Virus record (IMG/VR): IMGVR_UViG_2582581022_000007
Coordinates: 1 to 48,575 of that record
Strand: one strand, 5' to 3'
Length of the DNA stretch: 48,575 nt
Origin: a virus
Lineage: Duplodnaviria; Heunggongvirae; Uroviricota; Caudoviricetes
The position numbers were made by a program, and so were the translations under genes. Of this stretch, positions 23,476 to 48,575 are shown piece by piece. The notes below the pieces were generated by a model. It was not told where the DNA came from. It ran no database searches and saw only the letters and a list, made by a program, of their open reading frames with translations. Within the stretch, counting starts at the first letter, position 1. Each line of letters starts with the position of its first letter.

Positions 23476-24165
23476 TCAGAACTTACCAGCCATGCTGTTG
23501 ATGTACTGCGTATGAGTCTGGATATCGCGCAGGCATTTACTGGCGCCGACAATATAGCTCATCATGGCCGCGAACTCTGCTACAGCACCTTCAACATCAT
23601 GCCCGTCGGAATCCAGTTGGCGCAGCAGGTTCATCATCAAAGAGTGCTCTCTCAAACCAAGAACACCTTCAGGTGAATGGATGTGTTCACGGTAGTTTGG
23701 CTTGAGTGGGGCGCTGTATTCCTGTTTCTCTTCCGTCTTCATCGCTTCCAGAATGGCGGGCATGAAGCTGGCTACAACCTTTTGCGCTTTGTCTGCCGGT
23801 GATAATTCTTCACGAACGTATCGACCAGTGCGGCGGATTTGCGGAAGAACGTCGCCAGTTACCCATTTGCGGAAACGATAGGGGATAGTACCAGGAGTTA
23901 CCGCATCGCGGCAGCGCAGGATCAGAGTGTAGAGGCCGGATTCAGAGATGATGAGGGTATTAGGGTTCCCTCGTTTTCCGTCGGTTAAAGCGACGGTATT
24001 CTTTTCGTCGTCATCCAATTTAAGCAGAGCATCACGGTTGTTTGATATACCAAGAGCATTACATACATCTAACGCAATAAACCATGGCTCGCCGTCGATG
24101 ATGATTGCACGAATATCGGCTTGCGATTCGAAAGAAAAAACTGAAGTATTTTTTTGAGTTGTCAT
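23476..24165 (-). CDS. phage antirepressor (Bro-N/AntA-like N-terminal domain)
   Basis: N-terminal FSFESQADIRAIIIDGEPWFIALDVCNALGI resembles Bro-N/AntA; start set at ATG 24165 with GGTGA RBS. Confidence 0.7.
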   Translation of the reverse strand: MTTQKNTSVFSFESQADIRAIIIDGEPWFIALDVCNALGISNNRDALLKLDDDEKNTVALTDGKRGNPNTLIISESGLYTLILRCRDAVTPGTIPYRFRKWVTGDVLPQIRRTGRYVREELSPADKAQKVVASFMPAILEAMKTEEKQEYSAPLKPNYREHIHSPEGVLGLREHSLMMNLLRQLDSDGHDVEGAVAEFAAMMSYIVGASKCLRDIQTHTQYINSMAGKF

Positions 24166-24323
24166 AGTGATCACCTTTTAGTCTGGTTAATCACCACCGG
24201 AGGTTCCAATCTCGGAGGTGGTGAACTGTGCAGGGTTGGAACTACCGGCTAAAAGGACCCGGCGCACCTTTCGGTGCCCCCACACAGCCCACCATAATGC
24301 GAATGTGGCCGTGCTTAACGCAT

Positions 24324-24343
24324 AAAAAAACCGCTTGCGCGGT
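24324..24343 (-). terminator. rho-independent terminator on minus strand
   Basis: Minus-strand ACCGCGCAAGCGGT hairpin followed by TTTTTTT. Confidence 0.5.
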
Positions 24344-24480
24344 GAATGCGCCTTTTAGTATCCGGGGTTCCAATCCCGGCACTGGATTTTGCCAGTGCCT
24401 GATCACTATGGCACAAGTATTTTGCGTTGTAAATTTACCGTAAAGGTAATAATAAACGCATTATGTAGGTTATTTCAACC

Positions 24481-27680: not shown

Positions 27681-27801
27681 ACTAATTATTTTTTGAAGTT
27701 ACTAAATAGTCACAATGAAAATTTAAACCATATATGGTTTATTGTGTATGATGTGATCACCAACTAATGGGGGTCTTTATGCACAGTAAACGGTGGTCAC
27801 C

Positions 27802-28206
27802 ATGTCAGCCCAGCTAACCAGTGAGTCTTTAAATCAGTGGCTTAGTATGGGTTCTCTGGCTGCAGTGATCGCAGGAGTTCCACCAGAGGTGGCGCTTGGT
27901 GCTTTATCAGGTGCGGTAATATTTATTACCTCAGCCGTTGAGTATCCAATACGCCGTCGGGTTCTCCTGTCGATGCTCAGCTTCCTCTGCGGGCTTCTAT
28001 TCTACAAACCAACTGCATCAATCCTTATCGGCGTAGCCAGCCTGATCCCAACTATCACGCAGGACTCTTTCGAGAAAGGGATCGTCTTCTCTGCTGGCGC
28101 GTTCGTGTCGGCAATCGTCGCAGTACGTATTGGTATCTGGCTCTATCACCGTTCCGACAATCCACGCGATTTAATCCCGGGGAGAAAAGACGATGACAAC
28201 TCATGA
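27802..28206 (+). CDS. holin (putative), multi-pass membrane protein
   Basis: ~134 aa with several hydrophobic segments and charged C-terminus, first gene of lysis cassette. Confidence 0.5.
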   Translation: MSAQLTSESLNQWLSMGSLAAVIAGVPPEVALGALSGAVIFITSAVEYPIRRRVLLSMLSFLCGLLFYKPTASILIGVASLIPTITQDSFEKGIVFSAGAFVSAIVAVRIGIWLYHRSDNPRDLIPGRKDDDNS

Positions 28207-28498
28207 GCTGCTTTTACTGATTGCCAATGCGGTTATCTGTTCAGCTATAGCAATCCGCGTCGGTACATTCAGGCGTAATGGATCGCAACACCGCCGGTGG
28301 GGTGGGTGGATAGCCTACTTCCTTATCGTGGCATCAGCCAGCATCCCCGTCCGGGCTGCATATGCAATCTGGTATCACACACCAATGTCCGCTGATTTAT
28401 CAGAGGTCATCATCAATGCTGTCATGCTTGCCGCCGTTCTGAAGACGCGCGGTAACGTCGTGCAGATATTCAAAATATCGAGGTCTCAACATGAGTGA
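28193..28498 (+). CDS. second small membrane protein of lysis cassette (holin/antiholin-like)
   Basis: 101 aa, hydrophobic segments, GGAGAAAAGACG-ATG RBS, overlaps neighbours. Confidence 0.45.
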   Translation: MTTHELLLLIANAVICSAIAIRVGTFRRNGSQHRRWGGWIAYFLIVASASIPVRAAYAIWYHTPMSADLSEVIINAVMLAAVLKTRGNVVQIFKISRSQHE

Positions 28499-28970
28499 AC
28501 TTGCATGGATTTCTGAAGGAAGAAAATATATAGGGCAACTGGAAATCAAAGGCCCTCGTCATAATCCTCTAATTCTCCAGTTCTGGAAGGATATTAAACG
28601 AGGTGGTATCAAAGATGATGAAACGCCATGGTGTGCTGCATACGTCGGATCAATGCTCGAGCGTGTCGGAATCAAATCAACCCGTTTCGAGTCTGCAAAA
28701 TCTTACCTCAACTGGGGCGTCGAAATTAGCGAACCAGCTTATGGGTGTGTAGTGGTATTCAATCGTGACGGTGGCGGACATGTCGGGTTTGTTGTCGGAC
28801 AGCAACAGAACGGTGACCTGATGGTGCTGGGCGGTAATCAGTCAGATGCCATCAATATTCGTGCATTTTCACGCTCCCGTGTCACCGGTTACCGCTGGCC
28901 TGTTAATGTTGCCAAGGACAACAGGAAGTTACCTTTAATGACCGGCTCATTATCGGTGAGTGAATCATGA
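28491..28970 (+). CDS. endolysin (putative CHAP/NlpC-P60-like peptidoglycan hydrolase)
   Basis: Cys...His motifs (ETPWCAAYV ... GGHVGFVV) typical of CHAP-type hydrolases; between holin-like genes and spanins. Confidence 0.55.
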   Translation: MSELAWISEGRKYIGQLEIKGPRHNPLILQFWKDIKRGGIKDDETPWCAAYVGSMLERVGIKSTRFESAKSYLNWGVEISEPAYGCVVVFNRDGGGHVGFVVGQQQNGDLMVLGGNQSDAINIRAFSRSRVTGYRWPVNVAKDNRKLPLMTGSLSVSES

Positions 28971-29449
28971 TCAGAGCATTCATGAAAGCGTACTGGAAAC
29001 AGTTGCTTATCGTGGCGATGCTTGCTGCTCTGGTGATCGTCGGCGTTGTTGCCTGGAATGTTCATGGCAGCCGACAGTATGACGCCGGGTATGCGCAGGC
29101 AAAGACAGACCGTAAAACCGAAGATGATAAAGCTCGTCAGCACGACGAACAGGAGAAAGCAATCAATGAACGTAAAGCGCAGCAGAGGATCGACCAGGCG
29201 CGCAATGATGCTCTTGATGCTGCCGCTCGCGCTGGCAGGTTGCAGCAACAGCTCGTTGCCATCCGTGAGCAGCTCAGGCAGTATAACGCCATTGTCGGCG
29301 CTGGGCCGTCAGCCGCAGACACCGGTGTTTTGCTTGCCGACTTGCTCAGCAAATCTCTCGAGCGAAACCGACAACTGGCAGAGTACGCTGATCGGGCAGC
29401 CGAAGCAGGAAGAGTCTGTGAAAAGCAGTACGATTCGCTGACCAGGTGA
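28967..29449 (+). CDS. i-spanin (Rz-like)
   Basis: N-terminal transmembrane segment (LLIVAMLAALVIVGVVAW) then coiled-coil; contains embedded o-spanin in +1 frame. Confidence 0.7.
   Translation: MIRAFMKAYWKQLLIVAMLAALVIVGVVAWNVHGSRQYDAGYAQAKTDRKTEDDKARQHDEQEKAINERKAQQRIDQARNDALDAAARAGRLQQQLVAIREQLRQYNAIVGAGPSAADTGVLLADLLSKSLERNRQLAEYADRAAEAGRVCEKQYDSLTR
29205..29441 (+). CDS. o-spanin (Rz1-like lipoprotein) embedded within Rz gene
   Basis: MMLLMLPLALAGCSNSS lipobox, Pro-rich mature part, fully inside Rz in a different frame. Confidence 0.65.
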   Translation: MMLLMLPLALAGCSNSSLPSVSSSGSITPLSALGRQPQTPVFCLPTCSANLSSETDNWQSTLIGQPKQEESVKSSTIR

Positions 29450-29622
29450 CATGGCATTTTTCATGGTACTGATTTCCGGCGACGGTATATAAAACGGTAT
29501 TGGAAATTTTGTTTCTTTAAAAGTTGTTGTCAGTCAATTACTTATGTTGTCCGTAAATAATTGAGTGGGAATGATTTAACGTCTGGCAACAGCCTGCACG
29601 TAAAAGCAGTAAAGTACCTCTA

Positions 29623-29654
29623 AGCCCGCGTAACTGCGGGCTTTTTTGTTTTTG
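29623..29654 (+). terminator. rho-independent terminator after lysis cassette
   Basis: AGCCCGC-gtaact-GCGGGCT + TTTTTTGTTTTTG. Confidence 0.75.
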
Positions 29655-29880
29655 TATCTGGCACTTTCTGGCAGCTGTTAGCAACGGGAAGCACGGTTTT
29701 TTCAATGGAATTTTTGATGGTACTCTCTGGTTTCGAATTCAGGTTTGAAAAAGTACCATGTGATAAATTTCGGTTGAGTTATGGTATTTATTTTTTATAA
29801 CTCAATTAAAAACAGAGAGTTAAACAAGTTTTCTGAATTTTTTACAACATGGTATTTTTGATAAAGGAAAACAATAAAAC

Positions 29881-31071
29881 ATGTTGACTGACACCAGGCT
29901 GCGTCACCTTAAGCCGAAGGAGAAACTCTATAAAGTTAATGACCGTGATGGTCTGTATGTTGCGGTCACTCCGGCTGGAACTATTTCATTTCGTTATAAC
30001 TATTCAATAAACGGAAGACAGGAGACCGTTACTTTTGGCCGCTATGGTGTTGGAGGGATCACGCTTGCAGAAGCGCGTGAACGGCTCAATGAAGCTAAAA
30101 AAATGGTTGCCAGTGGAAGATCGCCAGCGAGGGAAAAAGCTAGAGATAAAGCTCGTATCAAAGATGCGGAGACTTTTGGTGCATGGGCTGAGAAATGGTT
30201 ACGCGGTTATCAAATGGCTGAATCGACGCGTGATATGCGGCGTTCGGTATATCAAAGGGAGTTGAAGTCAAAATTTGCGCAGCAGAAATTGACCGAGATT
30301 ACACATGAAGACTTACGCGCATTAACCGATAACATTGTCGAGAGAGGGGCACCGGCGACAGCTGTGCACGCCAGAGAGATTGTATTGCAAGTCTATCGCT
30401 GGGCTATTGAGCGCGGTCAGAAGGTTGAGAATCCCGCTGATCTGGTACGGCCTGCAAGCATAGCGAAATTTGAGCCTCGTGACAGGGCATTGACGCCAGT
30501 TGAAATTGGTCTGATGTATCGGTACATGGAACGGGTAGGAACGACGCCATCAATCAGAGCAGCGGTTAAACTTTTGCTGTTAACGATGGTACGTAAAAGT
30601 GAGCTTACTAACGCAACCTGGAACGAGATCAATTTTAGTGAGGCATTATGGACGATACCAAAGGAGAGGATGAAACGACGTAATCCACATTTGGTTTTTC
30701 TTTCCAGACAGGCAATGGATATTATGATTGCTCTCAAAACCTTTGCCGGTAGCTCTGATTTTATCCTTCCTTCGCGGTACGATTCCGATGCGCCAATGAG
30801 TAGCGCTACTTTAAACCGGGTTTTGACACTGACGTATCGTCTGGCTCAGAAAGAAGGGGACTTGTTACCTAAGTTTGGTCCCCATGACTTACGGCGTACT
30901 GCCAGCACCTTGCTACATGAGGCCGGGTACAATACTGACTGGATTGAGAAGTGCCTTGCCCATGAACAAAAGGGGGTACGAGCTGTTTATAACAAGGCTG
31001 AATATCGTGAGCAGAGGGCCGAGATGCTACAAGATTGGGCGAATATGATTGATGAATGGACTAGTAAGTAG
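29881..31071 (+). CDS. int: tyrosine recombinase/integrase, P4-type
   Basis: N-terminal arm-binding-like region (RLRHLKPKEKLYKVNDRDGLYVAV); C-terminal catalytic signature HDLRRTASTLLHEAGY...CLAHEQKGVRAVYNKAEY. Confidence 0.9.
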   Translation: MLTDTRLRHLKPKEKLYKVNDRDGLYVAVTPAGTISFRYNYSINGRQETVTFGRYGVGGITLAEARERLNEAKKMVASGRSPAREKARDKARIKDAETFGAWAEKWLRGYQMAESTRDMRRSVYQRELKSKFAQQKLTEITHEDLRALTDNIVERGAPATAVHAREIVLQVYRWAIERGQKVENPADLVRPASIAKFEPRDRALTPVEIGLMYRYMERVGTTPSIRAAVKLLLLTMVRKSELTNATWNEINFSEALWTIPKERMKRRNPHLVFLSRQAMDIMIALKTFAGSSDFILPSRYDSDAPMSSATLNRVLTLTYRLAQKEGDLLPKFGPHDLRRTASTLLHEAGYNTDWIEKCLAHEQKGVRAVYNKAEYREQRAEMLQDWANMIDEWTSK

Positions 31072-31125
31072 TTAATAATCAGTGATTTAAGTGGATATAC
31101 TTCTTTTATCTACGCCAGGAGAGCA

Positions 31126-31142
31126 ATTTTAGCCGCTAAAAT
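31126..31142. promoter_or_regulatory. 17-bp perfect palindrome ATTTTAGCCGCTAAAAT (KorB operator-like), copy 1
   Basis: Matches the TTTAGC(C/G)GCTAAA IncP KorB operator consensus as I recall it; ~55 bp upstream of gene 31195. Confidence 0.5.
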
Positions 31143-31194
31143 TTACTGAATCTTTACTGGTTTTATCTGGATTGCATAAAAAGGAAAAATAAAA

Positions 31195-31824
31195 GTGCCT
31201 GAGTTGTCTGTAATTATACAATGGATGAATCAATACCCTAAGACCGGCTGGCTATTGCTGTGTATCTATATTGCACTCGGTGTAGTTCGTCACAGAGTAA
31301 TTAATGCTGAATCTGGAAGTGTATTTCGTGGACTACTCAATCTTAGGAAGCGCCGGCTAGAGCAAATGCTGACACAGCCATATTTGAATAAAAATGCGGT
31401 CCGTCTGGCAAAGCGTGAGCTTCGTCAGCGCAGCCTTTATCGGCTCACAGGCTTGTATAATTATCGGCTGCAGGATTTGGCTGTAATAATGTGTGATCGT
31501 TATGGGTTGCGGGCTGGTTATCTCAAGCCGTGGCGTAACTGGCTCGAAGAACGGGATGGACGGATTGTGTTCAACAGGAAATGGCATTGTTTTCGCTGGC
31601 GTCTTTTTCTGGTAGGTCAGATTGTAAACACAGTTCTACTAATCTTATTCATTATGTATATAGTTTCTCATTCTTCGGCCGAAATGATCGCACCGCTTAT
31701 GTTACTCTTCATGCTTGTATGGTGGTTTCCTTGGCTAATGATCACCTCGGTACCTACCCCTAGGTGGACTCGCGAAATGGAAGTCTATCTTGAGAAATTT
31801 AACGCTGAACAGACCATGGTTTAA
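31195..31824 (+). CDS. hypothetical membrane protein
   Basis: 209 aa, several hydrophobic segments; GTG start with AAGGA RBS; flanked by palindrome copies 1 and 2. Confidence 0.45.
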   Translation: MPELSVIIQWMNQYPKTGWLLLCIYIALGVVRHRVINAESGSVFRGLLNLRKRRLEQMLTQPYLNKNAVRLAKRELRQRSLYRLTGLYNYRLQDLAVIMCDRYGLRAGYLKPWRNWLEERDGRIVFNRKWHCFRWRLFLVGQIVNTVLLILFIMYIVSHSSAEMIAPLMLLFMLVWWFPWLMITSVPTPRWTREMEVYLEKFNAEQTMV

Positions 31825-31961
31825 ACTGTTCTTTGTTACCATGCATTCAGAGTGAATTGTCAGAGTTTTGGAAGATTCCATCCTACGAGTAATACTCACA
31901 AGGTAATTCACATAATCAATAGGTTAAGTCATAAGCTTCTTGACCCTACATGAGAAGACGA

Positions 31962-31978
31962 ATTTTAGCTGCTAAAAG
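31962..31978. promoter_or_regulatory. KorB operator-like palindrome, copy 2 (ATTTTAGCTGCTAAAAG)
   Basis: One central and one terminal mismatch; flanking ~15 bp also resemble copy 1. Confidence 0.4.
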
Positions 31979-32401
31979 TTTGGGCATATTTGGACTTAAA
32001 TGCCACCGACATGATTCTAATAATTAAGCCAGTACCTAATGAGCCAAGAGAAGACAACTGTAAACGCCCCTTGGCTTAGACTTGCTTTCAGGAAAGCGAA
32101 TGCTTTTTATGGTCAGGGACAAGTAAGGGGATGAGCCATTGCATAACCATAAAACCAATTCGTTCTATGTCATTACAGATCGGCTTCAGTGATTTACTGG
32201 TGAGGTAGTATCACTGTGATCCGTTTTGCATAACGCTTACAGCTGCGCTACAAACAATAAACTATAATACTGTATTTTCAAAATCATCAATTTGAAGCAG
32301 GGTAATCGCGAAAAACCCTCGTAAGTGGCTGGTTATAATTCAATAAAGTGGATGATATTAAGACTTAAACTGCCACCATAATAGCTCGTGGATATACTAT
32401 T

Positions 32402-33373
32402 TTAAATATAAAATTCTTTCCTCACAGACGCTAAGGCCTTGGACACAGCCTGCTTTGTCATAGTTGTGTAGTGATTTTTTTCTAAAACCTGTGCGGTTTC
32501 AAACTGGTTAAAACCTTGGTGTTTTAATATGATTATTTTTTTCTTAGTATCAGTGAATTTGGAGTCAACCATTCGTCTGGCAATATTCCTAAGTTTATCT
32601 AGATCTGCTGGGGTTAAAGTTTGACCCTGCATCCACTCATGAAAATAGGTATCAATCAATATATCCCCTGTGTTTGCGTTAGCTTTATGCGGTTTAGCGC
32701 ATTGCCGTCTAAGCCTTATTAATTCTTTATTGAACTGTTCGAGAGACCGCTTTCCTTGTCTGTATTTGGGATTCCATAGACCATTGGTGAGTTTGGGCCT
32801 ATGGTCAGAACAATATCGATGACTAAGGACCTGTTTTTCATGAACGGGGAACTCATTATCGTTAGCAACAAATTCTGATATCTCACTGATCAACTTGGAA
32901 AATTCGGTTAGATTACCGCAGAACTCGCAATAACCGAGCTTACGCTGTGAATTTATAGTTACTCCTTTTGCAGGAGAGGATTTCTTCGGCCGCTTGGATG
33001 CGCACTCACTGACTAATTCAATAAGAGACTCAATCGTAGCGGTAAAGCATTTATCAAGAGAAGTTTGTTGATCTAAAGTCAGAACGAAATTACGCAAAAG
33101 AAGTCTTTGTGCCTGTACTACGACGTTTAAGCCCACTTTTTTAAGTACATCACTAAATCCTAGATTTACTCCAGAAATGTAGTCTTTATGACTTGGTGGC
33201 AGGGAATTTACATAAGCAGCTACTGCTGGATCAATAACTTCCTGTATGAGACGCAGTATTGGATACCTCCGTGAAAATATGGAGTACGGATAACTACGCT
33301 CTACAAATAATTTAATTGCAGCTGCAACTGTGAGGTCACAGCCTTCCCAGATAGTAATTTTCATGTCAACCAT
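32402..33373 (-). CDS. hypothetical regulator-like protein with Cys/His cluster and C-terminal HTH-like segment
   Basis: AT-rich ORF divergent from alpA; CEFCGN...CSDH cluster; start set at first ATG not overlapping alpA; no convincing RBS. Confidence 0.4.
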   Translation of the reverse strand: MVDMKITIWEGCDLTVAAAIKLFVERSYPYSIFSRRYPILRLIQEVIDPAVAAYVNSLPPSHKDYISGVNLGFSDVLKKVGLNVVVQAQRLLLRNFVLTLDQQTSLDKCFTATIESLIELVSECASKRPKKSSPAKGVTINSQRKLGYCEFCGNLTEFSKLISEISEFVANDNEFPVHEKQVLSHRYCSDHRPKLTNGLWNPKYRQGKRSLEQFNKELIRLRRQCAKPHKANANTGDILIDTYFHEWMQGQTLTPADLDKLRNIARRMVDSKFTDTKKKIIILKHQGFNQFETAQVLEKNHYTTMTKQAVSKALASVRKEFYI

Positions 33374-33450
33374 TTTAGCCAATGAATAGGTTTTAGCAAG
33401 TGGTAATGCTTGGCATTGTATAGGCCTGATTGGAAACAGGAGGAAGGCAG

Positions 33451-33681
33451 ATGCAAACAAAGGCACATAGCACGCTCATTAACAGAAAAACACTTCTGGA
33501 AATGATCCCATTGTCAGCCCGCACTATTTATAACCTTGAACAGCGAGGCGAGTTTCCTCGCCGTATAGCACTTACTAGTCGAAATGTTGCATGGCAGTTA
33601 TCCGAAGTGGAACAGTGGATTGCGGATCGTAAATCAGCAATGTTTAAAGCGGCCAGACCCGGTGTTGTTTTAGGTAGGTAA
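33451..33681 (+). CDS. alpA: AlpA-family transcriptional regulator (prophage CP4-57 regulatory protein type)
   Basis: ~76 aa with LLEMIPLSARTIYNLEQRGEFPRRI HTH; AGGAGGAAGG RBS before ATG 33451. Confidence 0.75.
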   Translation: MQTKAHSTLINRKTLLEMIPLSARTIYNLEQRGEFPRRIALTSRNVAWQLSEVEQWIADRKSAMFKAARPGVVLGR

Positions 33682-33686
33682 CAGCA

Positions 33687-34544
33687 ATGTCATTGAACAT
33701 AATGGAAGCATTTGAAGCTAAGCCACAACCAATTGATTACGTCTTGCCTAATTTGGCTATTGGTACTATCGGAGCGATTGTTTCTCCGGGAGGCGCTGGA
33801 AAGTCAATGCTGGCATTACAATTGGCTGTGCAGATTACTTGTGGTGTAGATCTTTTAAACTTTGGTGAATATCCGACTGGGTTGGTGGCATATTTACCTG
33901 TGGAGGACTCTGAAACCATCGTTCACCATCGTTTATATGCGTTGGGAAAATATCTAACAGCACGTCAGCAGCAGATTGTAGCTGATAAGCTACTGGTCGA
34001 ACCTTTGGTAGGGAAGTGTCCAAATATTTTCTTGCCGGATTGGAGCAACTTGATCAATGAAGTTTCAAAAGGTAGACGTTTAATAATTTTGGATACTCTT
34101 CGCCGTTTCCACCAGGAGGATGAGAATAATAGCGCAGCAATGTCCAAAGTCATTGGAAAGCTAGAAGGTATTGCTGCTGATACTGGATGTTCGATTATAT
34201 TTCTACACCATTCAAACAAAGGCGCTGCCACGATGGGGGTTGGTGATATACAGCAGGCAAGCAGGGGTAGTAGCGTCCTGGTTGATAATATACGGTGGCA
34301 ATCTTATCTGGCGGGCATGACCGCCTTGGAAGCGAAGACGTATGGTATTTCTGATGATGTTCGAGGTCAATTTGTTAGATTTGGAATAAATAAAGTAAAT
34401 TATGGAGAACGTGCGCCAGATCGTTGGTTACAGAGACATGAGGGGGGAGTATTAAAAATAACGGCGCTCAGCTCGAAGAATAATAAAAAGCTTACTAAAG
34501 AAAGAACATCTACCTGGAGTGGCGCTGACAATGACAACTGGTAA
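33687..34544 (+). CDS. RecA-fold P-loop ATPase (AAA_25/RepA-like)
   Basis: Walker A IVSPGGAGKSMLALQLA, Walker B-like RLIILDTL, IIFLHHSNK; typical partner of alpA in integrative islands. Confidence 0.6.
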   Translation: MSLNIMEAFEAKPQPIDYVLPNLAIGTIGAIVSPGGAGKSMLALQLAVQITCGVDLLNFGEYPTGLVAYLPVEDSETIVHHRLYALGKYLTARQQQIVADKLLVEPLVGKCPNIFLPDWSNLINEVSKGRRLIILDTLRRFHQEDENNSAAMSKVIGKLEGIAADTGCSIIFLHHSNKGAATMGVGDIQQASRGSSVLVDNIRWQSYLAGMTALEAKTYGISDDVRGQFVRFGINKVNYGERAPDRWLQRHEGGVLKITALSSKNNKKLTKERTSTWSGADNDNW

Positions 34545-35313
34545 TAAAGTGGCACCCACAAGTACAGCTTGGCAAGCCCGAGTAATTCTGTACCAGCCAA
34601 GCCAGCGTCCTAAGGAGGTGAAGGGACAATGGATGGAGACTAGTTTTGGTCGTTGTCGTGTTACCGGACGGCTCGGACAGCGTCATGCCGATATCGTAGA
34701 GACAATATTATATGTTGCCGAGCAACGTCGTGAAATTTCTGATGGTGGAATCGAATTATTAGTAGATCCAGCGAAAGTACGCCGAACGCTATCCGATGCA
34801 CAATACAGTTATGGTCGTATACAGAAATTGCTTTTAGATCTGCGCGTCGCAACAGTTGAAATTATAACGCCAGAGCTGGAGAAAAGCGGCGACTGTATAA
34901 TAGGGGGACTGATCGATCATGTAGTGCCATCACCTATGACGCGTCCAGATCCTTTGACTGGGGGAGAACGCCGTTTATGGCGTGTCCGTCTGGGTGTTGC
35001 ATTAGCGATGTTACTCAAAAAAGATTTGCCATTTTATTATCATCCTGGCCCCATAGCTCGGCTACAACATGGTATTAGCCAGGCAGTCGCTCGTCATGTC
35101 TTAACCCATAGTAATAATCCTTTAGGAGGGTGGTATATGGATACGTTGATATTAGCAGTATGCGGTGAAGGAACGAGTAATATGACTTTACGTAACTATC
35201 GTCGGAGATTGAAAGAAGATTCCGTGCAATTGCTGGAAATTGGAATTGATTTGAACGGTTCTAGGATAAAACGTGTCACAACGGCCCGATATTGTGTCAC
35301 AACGGCCCGATAG
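34519..35313 (+). CDS. hypothetical protein, possibly replication-associated (3' end overlaps iteron array)
   Basis: 264-aa ORF; last ~40 nt lie within 21-bp iterons; start codon uncertain (GTG 34519 or ATG 34531). Confidence 0.35.
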   Translation: MALTMTTGNKVAPTSTAWQARVILYQPSQRPKEVKGQWMETSFGRCRVTGRLGQRHADIVETILYVAEQRREISDGGIELLVDPAKVRRTLSDAQYSYGRIQKLLLDLRVATVEIITPELEKSGDCIIGGLIDHVVPSPMTRPDPLTGGERRLWRVRLGVALAMLLKKDLPFYYHPGPIARLQHGISQAVARHVLTHSNNPLGGWYMDTLILAVCGEGTSNMTLRNYRRRLKEDSVQLLEIGIDLNGSRIKRVTTARYCVTTAR

Positions 35314-35356
35314 CGTGTTATAGCGGCCCGGTAGCGTGCTACAGCGGCCCGATTTT
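35273..35356. repeat. iteron-like array, 4 tandem 21-bp repeats (GTGTCACAACGGCCCGATATT and variants)
   Basis: Units at 35273, 35294, 35315, 35336 share GTG-yyAyAgCGGCCCGrTa core; followed by AT-rich region with GATC sites. Confidence 0.7.
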
Positions 35357-35564
35357 TTACTATTCAGCAGTATTTACAGGATCGTTCAGGATCTACAGTC
35401 TTTGAAATCACCTGCCTGAGCAGGCGCTTTCAAATCTAGAATCGGCCAAAGGCCGATGGTTGTACGCCAGAAGAAGAGATTACTTACTCGTTTGGTATAT
35501 TGACACTTGAGGTAGGTTTTATGACATATGAGGTACGCCCCTAGCTTTAGGCATAGGGAGGAAG

Positions 35565-35581
35565 ATTTTAGCCGCTAAAAT
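35565..35581. promoter_or_regulatory. KorB operator-like perfect palindrome ATTTTAGCCGCTAAAAT, copy 3
   Basis: Identical 17-mer to copy 1; ~400 bp upstream of mobC-like gene. Confidence 0.5.
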
Positions 35582-35970
35582 CTGCAATGCACATGCTTTG
35601 ACAATGTAAGTAAAAAAGTGCATGAGAAAATAAAATATTTCTTACAATATATCGAAACATAAATACAGTTGGTGGACGCCCATTTATAACTACTAAAGGT
35701 CATTTTCAAAAGGGAGAAATATAGTTTCCTTGCAAGAAACACATTTGCTGCAGATCTTTACCCGAGTAATCCTATATTAATACGCTAAGAAAACACATCC
35801 TGTACACTGAAATACACATTGATGTGCACAGATATACTACGGCAACAGGAGGGCAGGACATGTAAAGTAGGCCCACCGCTACGGTGTTCCAACTTTACCA
35901 CTCCCTATTCGCCGCATCGCGGCTCAAGGGCGTCCTGCTCTGCCAGGCTACCGCCTGTATGGAGAGCTAT

Positions 35971-36324
35971 ATGAAAGTTACTCAGACTAGAAAAAATAGT
36001 ACGCCAATAAAAGTTTATTGTTTACCCGAAGAAAAAATTCTCATCCAAGAAAATGCAGAAGCATCTGGATTAAGTGTTGCCTGTTTTGTTCGTAGAGTTG
36101 CAATGGGTTATCAGGTTGATTCTATCGTAGATATAAAACAGGTTAATGAACTTAGCCGAGTAAACGCTGATCTTGGAAGACTTGGCGGATTACTTAAATT
36201 ATGGCTCGCAAATGATCCTCGAACAGTTGATTTTTCACCCACCCTGATAAGAACCTTGCTTGCGAAAATAGAATCAACTCGGCAAGAACTAAGGAACATT
36301 ATGGATAAAATCTTGGATAAATAA
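35971..36324 (+). CDS. MobC-like ribbon-helix-helix mobilisation accessory protein (putative)
   Basis: 117 aa from ATG 35971 (GGAGAG RBS); IKVYCLPEEKILIQENAEASGLSVACFVRRVAMG resembles relaxosome RHH proteins. Confidence 0.45.
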   Translation: MKVTQTRKNSTPIKVYCLPEEKILIQENAEASGLSVACFVRRVAMGYQVDSIVDIKQVNELSRVNADLGRLGGLLKLWLANDPRTVDFSPTLIRTLLAKIESTRQELRNIMDKILDK

Positions 36325-36405
36325 ATGTGTGGTTTCCTATATACCTGCGTCTGTTAAAAGACAGTGTGTTAAATATTACTGAACTGATGAAAAAGAGGTG
36401 AGCAA

Positions 36406-37200
36406 ATGAATTTAATGTTCCGAGTGGTTTCATTACAAAGAGGGATTTTAGCCGCTAAAAAAGCTTTAATAGTTCCTTTCGTGGCGTCCGTCATGGCATT
36501 ACCGGTTAAGGCCGGAATTCCCGTTATTGATGGCACTAATGTGGTTCAGACCACAATCAGCGCAGTTAACAACGTTCAGGCTGTGACTAAACAGATCCAG
36601 CAGTACCAGACGCAGCTGCAGCAGTATGAAAACATGCTCAAAAATACCGTCGCACCTGCGGCCTATATCTGGGATCAGGCCAATTCAACCATCAACAAAT
36701 TGTTGCAGGCGCAGGACACTCTTAATTACTACAAAAATCAGGCCGGGAGTCTTGATTCATATCTGAAACGTTATCAGGACGTGAATTACTACCGCTCATC
36801 ACCGTGCTTTAACAGTAATGTTGAATGTACTGCAGATGAAATCAGCGCACTGCGTAAAGCAGAACAGAACAGCTCTGAGGCGCGTAAAAAGGCCAATGAC
36901 GCCGTTTTTAAGGCTCTTGATGAACAGCAAGAAACACTGCAAAGCGATGCTGATAACCTGGCAGATTTGCAAACTCAGGCAACCGGCGCACAAGGGCAAA
37001 TGGAAGCTATTCAGGCCGCTAACCAGCTTGCAAGTGCTCAAACGAACCAGCTGCTGCAAATCCGCTCGCTCCTGGTAGCCCAGCAAAACGCTGCAGCAAC
37101 ACTGGCACAGGCTCAGGCAGATAAAGAATCACAACAGATAGCCGCTGATGAAAAAGCGTTAGCTGGAGAGAATACACCAAGCCCGAAGCGAATTTGGTGA
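36406..37200 (+). CDS. trbJ: TrbJ/VirB5-like type IV secretion protein
   Basis: Signal peptide, Q-rich coiled-coil (QIQQYQTQLQQYENMLKNT), ~260 aa, followed by small lipoprotein and TrbL-like gene as in IncP trbJ-trbK-trbL. Confidence 0.6.
   Translation: MNLMFRVVSLQRGILAAKKALIVPFVASVMALPVKAGIPVIDGTNVVQTTISAVNNVQAVTKQIQQYQTQLQQYENMLKNTVAPAAYIWDQANSTINKLLQAQDTLNYYKNQAGSLDSYLKRYQDVNYYRSSPCFNSNVECTADEISALRKAEQNSSEARKKANDAVFKALDEQQETLQSDADNLADLQTQATGAQGQMEAIQAANQLASAQTNQLLQIRSLLVAQQNAAATLAQAQADKESQQIAADEKALAGENTPSPKRIW
36445..36461. promoter_or_regulatory. KorB operator-like palindrome, copy 4 (ATTTTAGCCGCTAAAAA), inside trbJ 5' end
   Basis: 16/17 palindrome; encodes ILAAK within the putative signal peptide. 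Confidence 0.4.
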
Positions 37201-37211
37201 GGAAACGCAGA

Positions 37212-37385
37212 ATGAAAGATAATCTTTTGATTGTATTTATTCTGATCAGTTTATTGGCCATATGTTCTTGCGATAAAAATGATAAAGATTGTTTATCGAC
37301 GCCAGATAATAAATTTGATGAAAATAAATACGATAAATGTGCTCTACGGAGTAATAATAAACCAAGCCCTAAACGAGAATGGTAA
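37212..37385 (+). CDS. trbK: small lipoprotein, TrbK-like (entry exclusion) by position
   Basis: MKDNLLIVFILISLLAICSC signal/lipobox-like N-terminus, 57 aa, between trbJ-like and trbL-like genes. Confidence 0.45.
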   Translation: MKDNLLIVFILISLLAICSCDKNDKDCLSTPDNKFDENKYDKCALRSNNKPSPKREW

Positions 37386-38779
37386 TCATGAAAATAGCAA
37401 GTAAGCTCACCTTTCTAGGTATCATAATTTTCTTTTCTATAAATGCCTATGCTGGTCAATTAGATAGTAGCGGGCTACTTGATTCTTTATTAGATAAGTT
37501 TCAACAAGTAGCCAGTACATGGACAACAGTAATTGCTGACTATGCAAATTGGCTCTTCTGGGGGCTGGTATTAATAAGTATGGTTTGGACATTTGGTATG
37601 ATGGCAATGCAAGGAGAAGGGTTGACAGGCGTACTTGCTGAAATAGTTCGCTTTTTTGCCGTCATTGGTTTTTTTTATTATCTTTTAATCAACGGCCCAT
37701 CCATATCGCAATCCATAATTAATTCAATGAGGCAACTTGCAGCAAACGCTTTAGGAATAAGTACTGGTATTTCGCCCTCAAGCATAGTTGATATGGCGTT
37801 TGCGATATTAACAAAGGTCAGTTCAGCCGCATCAATTTGGTCGCCAATGATATCCACCATTATGATAACAGTAGCGATAATCGTTTTGGTAGTGATGTCC
37901 CTTATAGCGATAAATATGCTAATCATGTTGGTTTCTGCATGGGTGTTATGTTATGCAGGAGTTATATTGCTTGGATTTAGTGGTTCGAAATGGACCTCTG
38001 ATATAGCAATTAATTACTTACGAACTGTTTTATCGATTGGCATTCAATTATTCACGATGACATTAATTATTGGGATTGGACAATCATTTATAGATCAATA
38101 TTTTTCTCTTATTAAAGATGATGTTCCTGATCTTAATAGTCTTATCGTTTTGCTTCTGGCGTCAATTATCCTGTTAGTATTAACGAATAAGCTACCACTG
38201 TTGTTATCAGGTGTTGTAGGAGGAGCTTCTTTACAAGGGATTGGTGGATTTGGGGCGGGTATGATTACTGGCGCTGCCGCTACTGCCATCAGCGGTGCTG
38301 GAGCAATTGCAATGGGGGCATCAGCTCAAGTCAGCGGCGGAGCCTCTGCATTAAAGGCAGCGTTCGAGTCTGCGCAAGCTGCCATGGCCGAGGAATCTGG
38401 TTCAGGTGGTGGAGGCGGTTCCGGTGGAGGATTTGGCGTCGGGGAAGATACCGGTTCTGTAGATACTTCTGGAGGCCAACCCTCAGGCAGTTCCGGTGGT
38501 TCGTCAGCATGGAGCAGTTCAGTTAGCTCCAGCGGAGGAAGTCAGGGGTTTGCTTCATTCTCACGAGCTGGCCGCATGGCAAGCCATATGGGAAGCATCA
38601 TGGCCAACGGAGCTGCTGAGTACCAGAAAATGAAGCGAAGTAGCAATTCTTCTCGTGTCCAACAAACTATTGGAGGGGAGTTGGCGACTCAGATACGTAA
38701 GCAGACAGCTACTCATCGGGATAACCGCGAACATGATGATTTTGCCGATGATAGCTTATCGGGTAATAATAAATCTTGA
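37379..38779 (+). CDS. trbL: TrbL/VirB6-like polytopic membrane protein
   Basis: 466 aa, many transmembrane segments, Gly/Ser-rich C-terminal tail (SGSGGGGGSGGGFGVGEDTGS). Confidence 0.65.
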   Translation: MVIMKIASKLTFLGIIIFFSINAYAGQLDSSGLLDSLLDKFQQVASTWTTVIADYANWLFWGLVLISMVWTFGMMAMQGEGLTGVLAEIVRFFAVIGFFYYLLINGPSISQSIINSMRQLAANALGISTGISPSSIVDMAFAILTKVSSAASIWSPMISTIMITVAIIVLVVMSLIAINMLIMLVSAWVLCYAGVILLGFSGSKWTSDIAINYLRTVLSIGIQLFTMTLIIGIGQSFIDQYFSLIKDDVPDLNSLIVLLLASIILLVLTNKLPLLLSGVVGGASLQGIGGFGAGMITGAAATAISGAGAIAMGASAQVSGGASALKAAFESAQAAMAEESGSGGGGGSGGGFGVGEDTGSVDTSGGQPSGSSGGSSAWSSSVSSSGGSQGFASFSRAGRMASHMGSIMANGAAEYQKMKRSSNSSRVQQTIGGELATQIRKQTATHRDNREHDDFADDSLSGNNKS

Positions 38780-38860
38780 ATCATGTGCGTCAGTTAACGA
38801 GGTAGCGTGAGCTGACGCTTTCACTGTGCGAACTTTACTCCTGCAATTCAAAGGAAAAAC

Positions 38861-39325
38861 ATGTCCAGGACTCCCTATACACGGTTACGTATTGAGGGCT
38901 TCCGCAAAGCAGAGGCTTCCCTGAGACTTGAAGGAATGGACCCCAGTGGTACGCCACTGTACGAGTCCATTAAGGCACGTATTATTTCAGGTGAACTGAC
39001 GTATGAGCAGGGGCGTTCAGAGATTCTTACATACTACACAAAAGCAGATACTGACGGGCCTGTGACAGTGGGAGAGATGCTGGTAGAGGAATTTTTAAAA
39101 CCGCTGAACATGTCTCATGATGAACTGGCGGAAGCTATGGGTATCTGCAAGCAGTATATTGACGATATTATCTGCGGTTTGCGTCGTCTTACGGATGATG
39201 AGGCTCGCGTTCTTGCTGTCATATTTGGTACTGATGAGGACTTTTGGAGTAACCTTCAAAAGTTGCAAGATTGCAAGGAAAACCAAGTAAGTAGCCTTCG
39301 TCCACTTCGTGTTAGACCATGCTAG
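38861..39325 (+). CDS. HigA-like XRE-family HTH protein with N-terminal VbhA/FicA-like SxxxEG motif region
   Basis: C-terminal VGEMLVEEFLKPLNMSHDELAEAMGICKQYIDDIICGLRRLTDDEARVLAVIFGTDEDFWSNLQ matches HigA antitoxin HTH pattern; N-terminal ASLRLEGMDPSG has the (S/T)xxxE(G/N) motif. Confidence 0.55.
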   Translation: MSRTPYTRLRIEGFRKAEASLRLEGMDPSGTPLYESIKARIISGELTYEQGRSEILTYYTKADTDGPVTVGEMLVEEFLKPLNMSHDELAEAMGICKQYIDDIICGLRRLTDDEARVLAVIFGTDEDFWSNLQKLQDCKENQVSSLRPLRVRPC

Positions 39326-39514
39326 CTGCTCTTCACATGTCATGAATGTTAGAATATTTGTTCAAAGTCATTTCTTCAGAGCAAAATTTTTAATAGCGGA
39401 TAGAAAAATGCAAGGTATGTTGGAAAAATAAACGAAGCGAGTACGCAAACGTCTTGAAATGCAGTAACATCATTCCGCCACACTGGCAGTTGGCTAACGG
39501 CGAAAGGAGTTCAT

Positions 39515-40747
39515 GTGAGCCAAGAAGATGATGATAAGTATCCAGCTAGCGCCGTATCCTCATGGAGCGGCTTCGTTTATCAAGGGAAAATTGCATTATA
39601 TCACTCCCTCAAGATTATTCACGATGGCGATCTAGACTTTGAGCTTCAGCTAGACAGTAGTGACGACTTCGCTATTTATAAAAATGGAAAACTACACACA
39701 GCCCATCAAGTCAAAGCGAAGATAAGTAAATATCGAAGTGGTTACACCAAGGCGCTGGAACAGTCTACTTTAATCGAACACGACAAAATCCAAGGGACAA
39801 CGCGTTACTTCCATGTATCTGTTCCTCTAAATAATACGGACGATCATAGAGGCGCTAGCGGAGAAATAGTAAAATTCTATCGCTATGGGGATAATTATTA
39901 TTGTGGTTTGGGTGAAATTGAAGGGCTTACCAAAGAACTAATAAAAAAAATATGTAATAAGCAGCACATCATTGTCAGTGATAACCTTATAAATTTTAAC
40001 TATTGTTTACTTTCTGAAAAAATCAGCACCAAGGCAATATACAATCATAAATTAAATCAGGTTGGCGGAATTTCAGAAAACAGAGCAGCATATGAGGGTC
40101 GTATCAAGGCCAGAAATATTCTAGAAGACCTGCTAACCGAAAACCCCTATCAGAATAGGGACTACTATGCAGTTGCATTAAAGGCCAGGCTTCAAACTCA
40201 TCTGGAAGAGAGGTTGGATCAGGCGCTTCCAACAATGAGTGACACTACTTACGAGAGAGCTAGATGTCTGTGTGAGCACATTCGCGAAACTCATATCAAT
40301 GAATTGAAAGCCCTATGCCAGATGATGAAGCCCTCCGAGCGATTTCAAGACGTTCAGACGAACGACATCAGGCGATACACCAAGCTTATCCAGGCTATTT
40401 CGGTGGAGCCTATATTCAACCACCTCCCACACTACCTTGACAGCGAAAATCGATTTTACGTACCTACCGCTCTTGATGTAGATGAAAGCGAAGAGTGTGA
40501 GTTTGACATGACCCGTGAAATGAAAAACAACGGGGATCTGCTGAGACTACTTTTTGAGTATAACCATCTAATCGCCAGCAAAGCAGAAGCCTCATTCACC
40601 TTTAATACAAAATTTACAAACTCAGATGACTTCGACAACAAGCAGACCACTGAAAAGCTCGAAAGCAACATCACCAAGTCGCTATGCATTAGCGTGATAA
40701 CAAAAGACGATGCGGAGGAACGACTGAATGATAAAGCAACTCATTGA
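39515..40747 (+). CDS. candidate defence effector, LmuA-like (N-terminal PD-(D/E)xK-like nuclease motifs)
   Basis: GTG start with AAAGGAG RBS; GFVYQGKIALYHS...DLDFELQLDSSDDF...HQVKAK suggests D...D...(E/Q)xK nuclease; first gene of coupled operon. Confidence 0.45.
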   Translation: MSQEDDDKYPASAVSSWSGFVYQGKIALYHSLKIIHDGDLDFELQLDSSDDFAIYKNGKLHTAHQVKAKISKYRSGYTKALEQSTLIEHDKIQGTTRYFHVSVPLNNTDDHRGASGEIVKFYRYGDNYYCGLGEIEGLTKELIKKICNKQHIIVSDNLINFNYCLLSEKISTKAIYNHKLNQVGGISENRAAYEGRIKARNILEDLLTENPYQNRDYYAVALKARLQTHLEERLDQALPTMSDTTYERARCLCEHIRETHINELKALCQMMKPSERFQDVQTNDIRRYTKLIQAISVEPIFNHLPHYLDSENRFYVPTALDVDESEECEFDMTREMKNNGDLLRLLFEYNHLIASKAEASFTFNTKFTNSDDFDNKQTTEKLESNITKSLCISVITKDDAEERLNDKATH

Positions 40748-41393
40748 TGAAGCACTTGTTGCACATGGCTTTGTTAGTAAACGCGACTTGGACAACACAA
40801 GCTTTTATATTCGCGAGTCTGGATCTGCTATCAGGTTTGCAGTTCTATATAATCTTGATGACCTTCCTGACCCAGCCGAATTGAATAATAGAATCAATCA
40901 TCTTGCTCCTAGTGAATTTCTCAGAAACCCAAGCTTTAAGAAAAACTGCGACTTGATTTGTATTTATCGTCTTGATGTTCTGGCCAATTTCAAAGATCAC
41001 GAAGAAGAGATTTTCGCAATTGAAGAAGATCCGCACTTCTATAAAAAGTATGTTCTCTATTACAGTATCGCGGAAGAAAGTGCACTCACTAATTTCACCT
41101 ACGACAAACTGGTATCTGTTATTGCTGACAAAAAAGAATTTCTTGAATACAAAGAAAATCCTCTTAACGCCACACAATACAGCTTTGCGGCGAAGACCTT
41201 TATCAAGCTTCCTTTTTTAGAGTTACCTAACCATCAAGAAAATCTTGTGTCCTTGAGGTTACAGGCAGCAGAGGCCGTTGCACAAGCCAGCCTGAACGAT
41301 ACGTATTTGACTATCCAGAAAGTCACAGATAAAAACGCCGACGAAATTATCAAGGAAATGATTAAAAATGAACTGGCAAATATCCAAGATTGA
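40728..41393 (+). CDS. small middle-gene protein of the operon (LmuC-like by position)
   Basis: 221 aa; overlaps upstream gene by 20 nt and downstream gene by 26 nt; GGAGGA RBS. Confidence 0.45.
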   Translation: MIKQLIDEALVAHGFVSKRDLDNTSFYIRESGSAIRFAVLYNLDDLPDPAELNNRINHLAPSEFLRNPSFKKNCDLICIYRLDVLANFKDHEEEIFAIEEDPHFYKKYVLYYSIAEESALTNFTYDKLVSVIADKKEFLEYKENPLNATQYSFAAKTFIKLPFLELPNHQENLVSLRLQAAEAVAQASLNDTYLTIQKVTDKNADEIIKEMIKNELANIQD

Positions 41394-43701: not shown

Positions 43702-43856
43702 AAGCCACCTTGGCCACCTATTAGAGCGGGTGGCTAAATTTAGTGTTTCACTACAAATAGCATAAAAGGATGCAAAAATTCGGCGAATTTATTCCACGTG
43801 TTTTTTTAAATTCAATGTATGTTAAAATTGTGTCTATTTTATATCAGGATTGTCAA

Positions 43857-44744
43857 ATGAACTCAATTGTTACAGCTAAGGCATTGTCAGCAAGGAAAAA
43901 GTTTGCAGGCCGTCAATGGTTCTACGATTTTAGAGAACTAACTCAGCGTATTGATGAACAAAATGCCCAAAAAATTGCAGATAGCCTTTCCGTTCGATAT
44001 TCAAAACTAACAAAATTTTGGGATAAGGAAAAGAATTCAGAATGGATGTGCAGAATTTATTTATCGGCAAAAATGGTGATGAACGCCACAATACAGATTA
44101 ACTCCATGGAGTTTGCAAAAGAACGCAATATCCGTATCACAACTCCTTATTTAACATATTATTCCCTCCTTTCACTTCTTCGAGGAATCGTCTACACATT
44201 ACCAGAAGTGGAATGGGAGAATGGAAAGCTTATTGAGATATCGCATCACAAAGCTATAAATTTGGCATTCGACCATCTTTCGGCATTTAATAAGGACTTA
44301 TCTGAAGAGTTTAAAAATATCACGCTCACAGCCAAGGCATATCGTGAATTAATTTCGTATCGCTCCCCAACGTCGGGTGACTCTATAATTGAATCAATAA
44401 GCATCGAAGCGATTGCCACATTGCTAGCTGAGGTGGCACAATTTAACTCTGAAATTTTGGAGTCATCCATTATTAAGAAAGCAGATGGCGCTTCGTTTGA
44501 GTTTCTTAGTAAGTATATAAAAGAGTTATCTGGCATTACTATCGAAGGTATCAATTTCTTCGATCAAGAAGATGCTTATAGGTTAAACTATCTTCGCCGA
44601 AAATACCCTCTACCTCCAAATGTTCTTCATGTCATGACGGAAGGACATGTAGAGGATTTTTTTGGGGCATGGCTACCTAGTGAAGAAATTGAAGGTGCTT
44701 TTGACCCAGATGAAAATTGGGGAGTTATTTTTGATATCCCATAG
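43857..44744 (+). CDS. hypothetical protein (orphan gene between two defence loci)
   Basis: 295 aa from ATG 43857 (AGGA RBS); follows hairpin after previous operon; no motifs I can assign. Confidence 0.4.
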   Translation: MNSIVTAKALSARKKFAGRQWFYDFRELTQRIDEQNAQKIADSLSVRYSKLTKFWDKEKNSEWMCRIYLSAKMVMNATIQINSMEFAKERNIRITTPYLTYYSLLSLLRGIVYTLPEVEWENGKLIEISHHKAINLAFDHLSAFNKDLSEEFKNITLTAKAYRELISYRSPTSGDSIIESISIEAIATLLAEVAQFNSEILESSIIKKADGASFEFLSKYIKELSGITIEGINFFDQEDAYRLNYLRRKYPLPPNVLHVMTEGHVEDFFGAWLPSEEIEGAFDPDENWGVIFDIP

Positions 44745-45916: not shown

Positions 45917-45918
45917 AA

Positions 45919-48574: not shown

Positions 48575-48575
48575 T

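Follow-up and report, generated by a model that had tools for sequence, protein, structure and literature searches.

A predicted hybrid att site at the 3′ end of guaA joins an epsilon15-like prophage to a GIsul2/PIME1-type island

Introduction

The 3′ flank of guaA is the target of the epsilon15 integrase cluster, whose members occur both in phages and in islands (PMC8138268). The Uetakevirus phages phiV10, epsilon15 and vB_EcoP_ZX5 share an attP/attB core, attgagtgggaatgatt, at the 3′ end of the gene (PMC9782041). On the side of the islands, the integrase (Int) of GIsul2 recombines att sites with a central GAGTGGGA at guaA (PMC9376610), and PIMEs, which insert beside guaA, require IncP helpers for their excision (bioRxiv 10.64898/2026.01.12.698999). 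More generally, integrative mobilizable elements (IMEs) are often found in tandem with prophages, and the transfer of accreted tandems has been documented (PMC5704250). Here, we analyse a stretch of 48,575 nucleotides from a Caudoviricetes virus record (IMG/VR record IMGVR_UViG_2582581022_000007, positions 1 to 48,575; hereafter the window), in which the lysis genes of a prophage are followed by a tyrosine integrase gene and by AT-rich genes. As judged from sequence comparisons, two independent integrative elements, a prophage and an island, very probably lie head to tail there in one att site, the guaA 3′ end.

The arrangement resembles the tandem accretion described previously (PMC5704250), which likewise involves two functional-looking elements with related integrases of the same specificity, a chimeric internal att site and outer attL and attR sites. 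However, most documented tandems pair up integrative and conjugative elements (ICEs), IMEs or cis-mobilizable elements (CIMEs) at tRNA or ribosomal-protein genes, whereas a podovirus prophage and an IncP-dependent IME meet here at guaA. The att specificities and tandem accretion have both been published already; the junction is an ordinary tandem integration by known families.

Materials and methods

Segments of the window were compared by megablast with 5,426 complete Escherichia coli genomes. A base-by-base comparison set the core and both flanks against the empty site of K-12, the attP of epsilon15, the island-only strain M8, the phage-only strain H10407 and the tandem strain VE-V11-M. Relatives of the island integrase were collected by scanning one genome per species; this gave at least 533 relatives, the best 80 of which (87–100% protein identity; alpha-, beta- and gammaproteobacteria) were used for the analysis of the arms. 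Domains and families were assigned with the Pfam, NCBIfam and PADLOC libraries, RNAs with Rfam and tRNAs with ARAGORN. The guaA-derived att core was recognized by comparison with E. coli chromosomes, after a blind repeat search, and was sought across the window with up to three mismatches allowed.

Results and discussion

The junction at the guaA 3′ end

The sites that delimit the two elements are as follows.

29450–29559: attP arm of the prophage, Rz side (by identity to the epsilon15 and H10407 arms)
29560–29577, + strand: 18-bp att core ATTGAGTGGGAATGATTT, shared by the prophage (as its right end) and the island (as its left end), a predicted hybrid site
29578–29880, + strand: int-proximal att arm of the island, 303 bp, 100% identical to M8, where it directly follows guaA
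29881–31071, + strand: island integrase, a tyrosine recombinase of 396 residues (Arm-DNA-bind_3, Phage_int_M and Phage_integrase domains)
48300–48425: right-hand att arm of the island, with ATGGTAT boxes at 48349 and 48361
48426–48443, + strand: second core copy TTCGAGTGGGAATGATTT (attR), with two mismatches relative to the first
48444–48479, + strand: native chromosome downstream of guaA (36 nt, exact match to K-12)

The core ATTGAGTGGGAATGATTT consists of the final 15 nt of guaA, which encode I-E-W-E-stop, plus TTT. Positions 29560–29574 indeed read ATTGAGTGGGAATGA, the C-terminus of GMP synthase, and the window core is identical to the K-12 attB, to the epsilon15 attP and to the M8 island junction. 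Across the window the core is matched twice (29560–29577, and 48426–48443 with two mismatches), compared with 0.04 matches expected by chance, and both copies fit the published guaA-derived att sites containing GAGTGGGA. The att core thus derives from the 3′ end of a protein gene and not from a tRNA. A tRNA-derived att site, as in P4-like islands integrated at tRNA genes, was considered and rejected: neither end of the island carries a tRNA gene or a 3′ fragment of one. ARAGORN and Rfam found no tRNA near 29450–29880 or 48300–48575, the sole tRNA of the window being the phage tRNA-Arg at 5477–5553. The core was absent from the 20 families shown by a window-wide search for direct repeats; two mismatches near the start of the second copy caused this blind search to miss it.

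The five contexts in which the core was compared read as follows.

K-12, empty site: ..CTACC-ATTGAGTGGGAATGATTT-GACCCTGCACTATGAATGAACAAAACCCTCTGTTACTACAGAGGGTTTTTT, with the native terminator
Free epsilon15, whose attP lies between Rz and int: ..TAAATA-ATTGAGTGGGAATGATTT-ACATCTAACTC..
Phage-only lysogens (enterotoxigenic E. coli H10407, and ET846): phage Rz arm, core, native K-12 sequence, yfgI
Island-only M8: guaA, core, AACGTCTGGCAACAG..
Window: phage Rz arm, core, AACGTCTGGCAACAG..

The junction of the window, TAAATAATTGAGTGGGAATGATTTAACGTCTGG, therefore combines two of these contexts. The 110 nt on the left of the core are 84–87% identical to phage arms (83.6% for epsilon15 and 87.3% for H10407), compared with 51.8% for M8 guaA. 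Conversely, the 303 nt on its right are 100% identical to M8, compared with 56.6% for epsilon15 (over 182 nt) and 49% for K-12 (over 92 nt). The megablast match of 29560–31200 to the locus directly after guaA in many E. coli genomes, such as M8 (99.8% identity), begins within the final codons of guaA. Since the prophage ends and the island begins at the core at 29560–29577, this sequence has the make-up of a hybrid att site, with a phage arm, the core and an island arm.

The core copies bracket 29560–48443, and native K-12 sequence follows the second copy; we therefore place the limits of the island there, which gives it a length of 18.9 kb. The GC content falls from about 0.52–0.57 over most of the prophage to 0.36–0.48 downstream of the junction. 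The 36 nt of native chromosome (48444–48479) hold the 5′ half of the original guaA terminator, which is interrupted at 48480 by an insertion sequence (IS). This end of an IS4-family element (48480–48575), inserted in the stem of the displaced guaA terminator, reads CTGTCTCTTGATCAGATCT and is 95–97% identical to ISEc13-type copies; the K-12 match stops at ..CTGTTACTAC. The CTGTCTCTTGATCAGATCT at 48480 presumably resembles the inside end of IS50.

The initial annotation of this region had proposed a boundary between two mobile elements, which is supported by the occurrence of each element alone (see below) and by cores that bracket the island only. It had the junction region right, with the difference that the boundary lies at the core, upstream of the terminator, and not in the AT-rich spacer after it. 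It had seen no tRNA-derived att core; an att core is nevertheless present, the 18-bp guaA core at 29560–29577 with its second copy at 48426–48443. The lack of a tRNA at the junction is confirmed by ARAGORN and Rfam. The AT-rich cargo that it had described downstream is also found, with the drop in GC content and with alpA, ATPases and defence genes. Finally, it had suggested a comparison with island-free genomes for att repeats, and had taken a single element spanning both regions as the contrary case. The comparison resolves core copies that bracket the island alone, and the repeats thus point away from a single element.

Each element also occurs alone

The element on the left is identified by its sequence as an epsilon15/phiV10-like (Uetakevirus) prophage, with a predicted attP between Rz and int. 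It is 78–91% identical at the DNA level to epsilon15, phiV10, SPN1S and relatives over 40–48% of the query, with a shared gene order. Its last genes form a lysis cassette (Pfam assignments).

27793–29449, + strand: lysis cassette, in the same order as gp23–holin–endolysin–Rz of epsilon15, by attP
27793–28206 and 28193–28498, + strand: two holins
28491–28970, + strand: CHAP-domain endolysin
28967–29449, + strand: Rz-like spanin (DUF2514)

As attP lies between Rz and int, the integrated prophage has its lysis cassette at its right end. The gene order, the attP core and the lysis cassette abutting attP are the same as in the Uetakevirus phages epsilon15, phiV10 and vB_EcoP_ZX5. The window prophage differs from them by its endolysin (CHAP-domain instead of the GH19 of the compared Uetakevirus) and by its right att site, which is fused to an island arm and not to native chromosome.

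This phage type is known without the island, as free epsilon15 and in the lysogens H10407 and ET846, and its right end is present at a coverage of at least 80% in 377 of the complete E. coli genomes. Reciprocally, the island is found without the phage, right after an intact guaA, with an arm and an int 99.8–100% identical to those of the window. When 28900–31200 is used as the query, 17 records match at 99% identity or more, and all of those listed are island-only junctions directly after guaA. The lysis genes are contiguous with int in only two of the 5,426 genomes (VE-V11-M and R18), at about 93% identity: the phage–island tandem is rare in E. coli. Many E. coli have islands that match the backbone, up to about 43735, at 97% identity over 14 kb. 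None of the 5,426 complete E. coli genomes covers at least 80% of the whole island, and the remaining 4.7 kb or so of cargo (about 43735–48443), which contains the PDC-M01 candidate defence pair and the ORF at 43770–44744, has no close match among them; exchange of cargo appears to take place at the att-distal end of the island.

The integrase encoded at 29881–31071 has three domains (PF13356, PF22022 and PF00589), all of which exceed their cut-offs. Its identity reaches 87.3% with the Int of GIsul2 on plasmid R485 but only 52% with that of epsilon15 (395 residues, no gaps, E = 3e-151), and copies of it with 87–100% identity adjoin guaA in many Pseudomonadota. We therefore assign it, on these comparisons, to the epsilon15/GIsul2 cluster of tyrosine integrases that target the guaA 3′ end, with predicted catalysis, and to the downstream island. 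The initial annotation had left its owner open between the two elements: its attribution to the island is borne out by the island-only genomes and by these identities, and its attribution to the prophage is not, as the phage integrase of relatives lies at the other end, next to guaA.

One may ask whether the whole is instead one composite element, the integrase at 29881 being the prophage's own and the AT-rich genes phage-borne cargo. In its favour, int adjoins the lysis genes both in the window and in two E. coli genomes, and free epsilon15 also has its integrase after Rz, across attP. Yet the epsilon15 Int shares only 52% identity with the island Int, and the right flank is only 56.6% identical to epsilon15 (182 nt), compared with 100% to phage-free islands lying after an intact guaA. 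Moreover, the cores bracket 29560–48443 alone, the tandem of VE-V11-M has a separate phage integrase at guaA, and the combined length of about 59 kb exceeds the 39–45 kb of related phage genomes. A composite element is therefore highly improbable. Two elements are preferred because the island occurs without the phage, the phage occurs without the island and the cores bracket the island alone.

A different question concerns history: the whole tandem together with guaA, or one element with its flanks, may have been acquired as a block, by homologous recombination or composite transfer, and not by integration in this lineage. The arrangement is also present, at about 93% identity, in VE-V11-M and R18, so that the composite recurs or spreads, and other elements are documented to be transferred as accreted tandems (PMC5704250). 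However, the 93% identity to the other tandems, compared with 99.8% to island-only genomes, suggests independent assembly from different variants. We regard block acquisition as unlikely; nothing in the sequence opposes it, and in either case the junction stays a hybrid att site.

The integrase is 87–100% conserved over Enterobacterales, Vibrio, Pseudomonas, Burkholderiales, Rhizobiales and Acetobacteraceae, compared with only about 59% for the arm DNA. For a site-specific recombinase, such conservation is unusually strong and such a host range very broad; this matches the invariant C-terminal guaA codons that it targets.

Architecture of the int-proximal arm

Within the 303-bp arm that separates the core from int, we distinguish the following features.

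29583, 29658 and 29668: phased TGGCA-type direct repeats, with degenerate copies, on both sides of the terminator
29622–29653, + strand: intrinsic terminator (terminator scan, centroid hairpin)
29717–29724 (+ strand) and 29752–29759 (− strand): perfect inverted repeat ATGGTACT/AGTACCAT, i.e. two ATGGTAC boxes in opposite orientation
29781–29786 and 29849–29854, + strand: further ATGGTA boxes

The arm DNA of the 80 loci has a median identity of about 59% to the window, with discrete blocks kept: the core, the phased TGGCA repeats, the terminator and the ATGGTA boxes. Of the 80 species-representative loci, 76 have the core at a distance of 316–320 nt upstream of the int ATG, and the guaA 3′ end is directly upstream of it in all but two of these 76. 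In the two exceptions, Comamonas nitrativorans (locus L083) and a metagenome-assembled genome of Nitrospira (locus L067; positions 1–1200 of each), the core before int is not preceded by guaA. The upstream region of the former contains a reverse-transcriptase ORF (open reading frame) and ends in ATGGTA boxes, resembling the right arm of another island; that of the latter contains a long ORF of no assigned identity. Both are probably further tandem arrays at the guaA site.

The terminator is made of a GC-rich hairpin at 29622–29643, AAGCCCGC and GCGGGCTT separated by 6 nt, followed by TTTTTTGTTTTT. The block AAGCCCGC...GCGGGCTTTTTT is conserved in island arms of alpha-, beta- and gammaproteobacteria, for example in Vibrio, Cupriavidus, Brucella and Mesorhizobium; since the hairpin is conserved across such distant hosts, the terminator travels with the island. 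The possibility that it is guaA's own terminator was rejected, as the native K-12 one differs (CCCTCTGTTACTACAGAGGGTTTTTT) and lies after the second core copy. Likewise, epsilon15 has its own terminator just past the core (stem_loop 26795–26824). The terminator is thus a component of the island arm. In island-only hosts it would stand in for the native guaA terminator, displaced to 48444 onward; in the window it comes after the phage lysis genes.

About 226 bp of non-coding DNA follow (29655–29880), up to the integrase gene at 29881–31071. This agrees with the spacer of about 230 bp before the integrase that had initially been described. The terminator of the initial annotation is likewise present, but its assignment to the lysis cassette does not stand, given its place beyond the core, within the island; the inverted repeat noted in the spacer is real and perfect, with coordinates about 2 nt off. 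Taken alone, this 8-bp repeat is no stronger than the other 11 inverted pairs within the same 450 nt; its significance comes from its conservation in other islands. Relative to the int ATG, the ATGGTA boxes of the 80 loci are found at about −130 on the minus strand (75/80), at about −100 (77/80) and at −35 (78/80), with a less constant box at about −165 to −175 (about 36/80). The inverted repeat corresponds to the −165 box and the −130 box. Each unique arm carries two to five ATGGTA boxes, compared with 0.17 in shuffles, and the two island arms of the window together carry six, compared with 0.30 expected (Poisson P of about 8e-7). The right arm of the VE-V11-M island has three. The TGGCA repeats also recur at fixed positions over the 80 loci (about −300, −290, −280, −225, −215, −205, −180 and −165 relative to the int ATG); the directionality factor AlpA is a candidate to bind those adjacent to the core.

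Because the boxes are found on both arms and Int has an arm-binding domain, we propose that the ATGGTA boxes are most likely arm-type sites for the N-terminal domain of Int. They might instead, together with the inverted repeat, be promoter or operator sites of int, bound by AlpA, the LuxR-like regulator or a host factor: the boxes lie within the 170 nt before the int start, one of them 35 nt from the ATG. However, the same boxes are present in the right arm, far from int (48349 and 48361 in the window, and also in VE-V11-M), as would be expected of an arm-type layout, and Int does possess an N-terminal arm-binding domain. We consider a promoter or operator function of the boxes improbable, and retain their assignment as Int sites. 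The phage arms, for their part, bear ACGGTAT boxes, which are annotated as predicted integrase sites in epsilon15; the Rz-side arm of the window has them at 29482 and 29494, in addition to an ATGGTAC at 29463.

Assembly of the tandem

We propose that each element encodes its own tyrosine integrase (the two being 52% identical), which would recombine within the shared core (ATT)GAGTGGGAATGATTT. Each would carry the last codons and stop of guaA followed by its own terminator, so that integration would rebuild an intact, terminated guaA. The hybrid site would have arisen when one element integrated into the att site already rebuilt by the other. Had the island arrived first, the phage would have entered the island's rebuilt left site (guaA end, core and island arm); had the phage arrived first, the island would have entered the phage's right site (phage arm, core and native DNA). 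Both orders of arrival give the observed sequence, and the order therefore cannot be read from it. Each element is expected to excise independently, since each keeps both of its own arms.

Several points nevertheless weigh against this picture. The prophage's own integrase and attL would lie beyond the left edge of the window, and its completeness is deduced from relatives; in VE-V11-M, the equivalent prophage has a separate integrase adjoining guaA, at its far left end. The minimum free energy z-score of the 66-nt terminator stretch is only −1.57, so the status of the terminator would rest on its canonical hairpin, its T-tract and its conservation. Finally, the Rz-side phage arm contains a ATGGCATTTTTCATGGTACT block that is 90% identical to a block of the island arm; the arm specificities of the phage and island integrases may thus overlap, which weakens the claimed independence of the two elements.

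Backbone and cargo of the island

The genes and sites downstream of int are the following.

32402–33466, − strand: putative LuxR-like regulator (RefSeq names the M8 homologue a LuxR family regulator; the ORF itself matched no family of Pfam, NCBIfam or PADLOC)
33430–33681, + strand: alpA (PF05930), divergent from the LuxR-like ORF
33687–34544: RepA-type helicase (AAA_25)
34519–35313: ORF without an assigned family
35273–35356: iteron-like 21-nt repeats (repeat search)
35851–36324: traJ-II RNA and NikA-like TraJ
36406–37200: trbJ (NF010452, 386 bits)
37379–38779: trbL (PF04610)
39515–43701, + strand: Lamassu / ABC-three-component system (Pfam CTD1, MComp1 and SMC_N; PADLOC LmuA, LmuC and LmuB)
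45065–47385, − strand: candidate defence pair PDC-M01 (PADLOC PDC-M01A/B)

The core set of the PIMEs (int, alpA, replicase, trbJ and trbL) is present, as is the adjacency to guaA, here with the prophage in between. By its gene set and layout, the element is therefore assigned to the GIsul2/PIME1 type of IME. With PIME1 (for example that of E. coli RHB23-C07) it shares int, alpA, the replicase, trbJ, trbL and traJ, the adjacency to guaA and a large accessory region with immune systems, and perhaps also the pair of divergent regulators, the ORF opposite alpA being LuxR-like by its M8 homologue; the window island differs in sitting behind a prophage and not directly behind guaA. With GIsul2 it shares the guaA target, att sites with a central GAGTGGGA and the backbone order int, alpA and repA, then trbJ and trbL. 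However, it is devoid of the ISCR2-sul2, ars operon, repC (IncQ-type), trbK and resG of GIsul2, and unlike GIsul2 it has a putative LuxR-like gene divergent from alpA, a NikA-like TraJ with a traJ-II RNA, and anti-phage cargo (Lamassu and PDC-M01). Where GIsul2 has repA–repC, the window island has the helicase and the ORF at 34519–35313 with its repeats.

These repeats are three 21-nt direct copies of GTGTCACAACGGCCCGATATT, spaced by 21 and 42, which overlap the end of the ORF that follows the RepA-type helicase. They look like the iterons of an IncQ-like oriV that would serve the excised island. The traJ-II RNA detected by Rfam at 35851–35949 (83.5 bits for a gathering score of 40) overlaps the start of the NikA-like traJ ORF, and is probably within the oriT/relaxosome-accessory region of the island. 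The ORFs at 31195–31824, 34519–35313 and 43770–44744 have no match in the libraries searched (Pfam, NCBIfam and/or PADLOC).

In the prophage, we also observed a C4 antisense RNA (77 bits) beside an isrK Hfq-binding RNA (76 bits) at 24214–24398 on the minus strand, upstream of a minus-strand ORF (23476–24174). The ORF at the equivalent position of the VE-V11-M prophage (locus L002, 13604–14290) is annotated as BRO-N domain-containing. The C4/isrK region resembles an antisense immunity module of the P1/P7 style, here in a podovirus akin to epsilon15. In addition, a perfect 23-bp tandem duplication, with two copies of TGCGCCGCCCGGCGCCCTGGTCG at 2363–2408, is located upstream of the terminase genes.

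KorB operator sites in the island

The island also contains sequences that match the KorB operator (OB) of IncP-1 plasmids, the core of which was taken from PMC11790492.

31128–31140: perfect IncP-1 KorB operator palindrome TTTAGCCGCTAAA, 57 nt after the int stop
31964–31976 (one mismatch), 35567–35579 and 36447–36459: further copies

In total, the palindrome TTTAGCSGCTAAA is found at four sites (three perfect and one with a single mismatch), compared with 0.04 expected, and the first two flank the ORF at 31195–31824. Of 79 related loci, 32 have a KorB site just past the int stop (a perfect one in 29), and these come from many genera. The traJ, trbJ and trbL genes of the island are also of IncP type; like the operator sites, they bear only indirectly on a predicted excision by IncP helpers. 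IncP-specific induction and an unexplained incompatibility between PIMEs and their helpers have been described, with no mention of KorB (bioRxiv 10.64898/2026.01.12.698999). The sites could act as a sensor, as a titration sink or as a partition hijack. That all four are real KorB loading sites, which would allow the island to detect, titrate or make use of the KorB clamp when an IncP helper plasmid arrives, is a tentative proposal that we put forward with the balance of probability against it.

Conclusions

The annotation of the locus can now be fixed with regard to where the 18.9-kb island with its defence genes begins and ends, where the prophage ends on the right, and which element owns the integrase and the terminator. 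The locus illustrates how two elements with related integrases, a phage and an island that depends on a plasmid, would stack at one essential-gene target, each restoring guaA. The fixed arm architecture found in about 80 diverged islands provides footprinting targets for the GIsul2/PIME recombination complex. Should the KorB sites be functional, they would couple integrase- and alpA-driven excision to the arrival of the helper, and could explain both the IncP specificity and the PIME–helper 'incompatibility'; an island in a tandem array could then leave independently of the neighbouring prophage. The conserved KorB operators offer a testable lead on how islands may detect IncP helpers.

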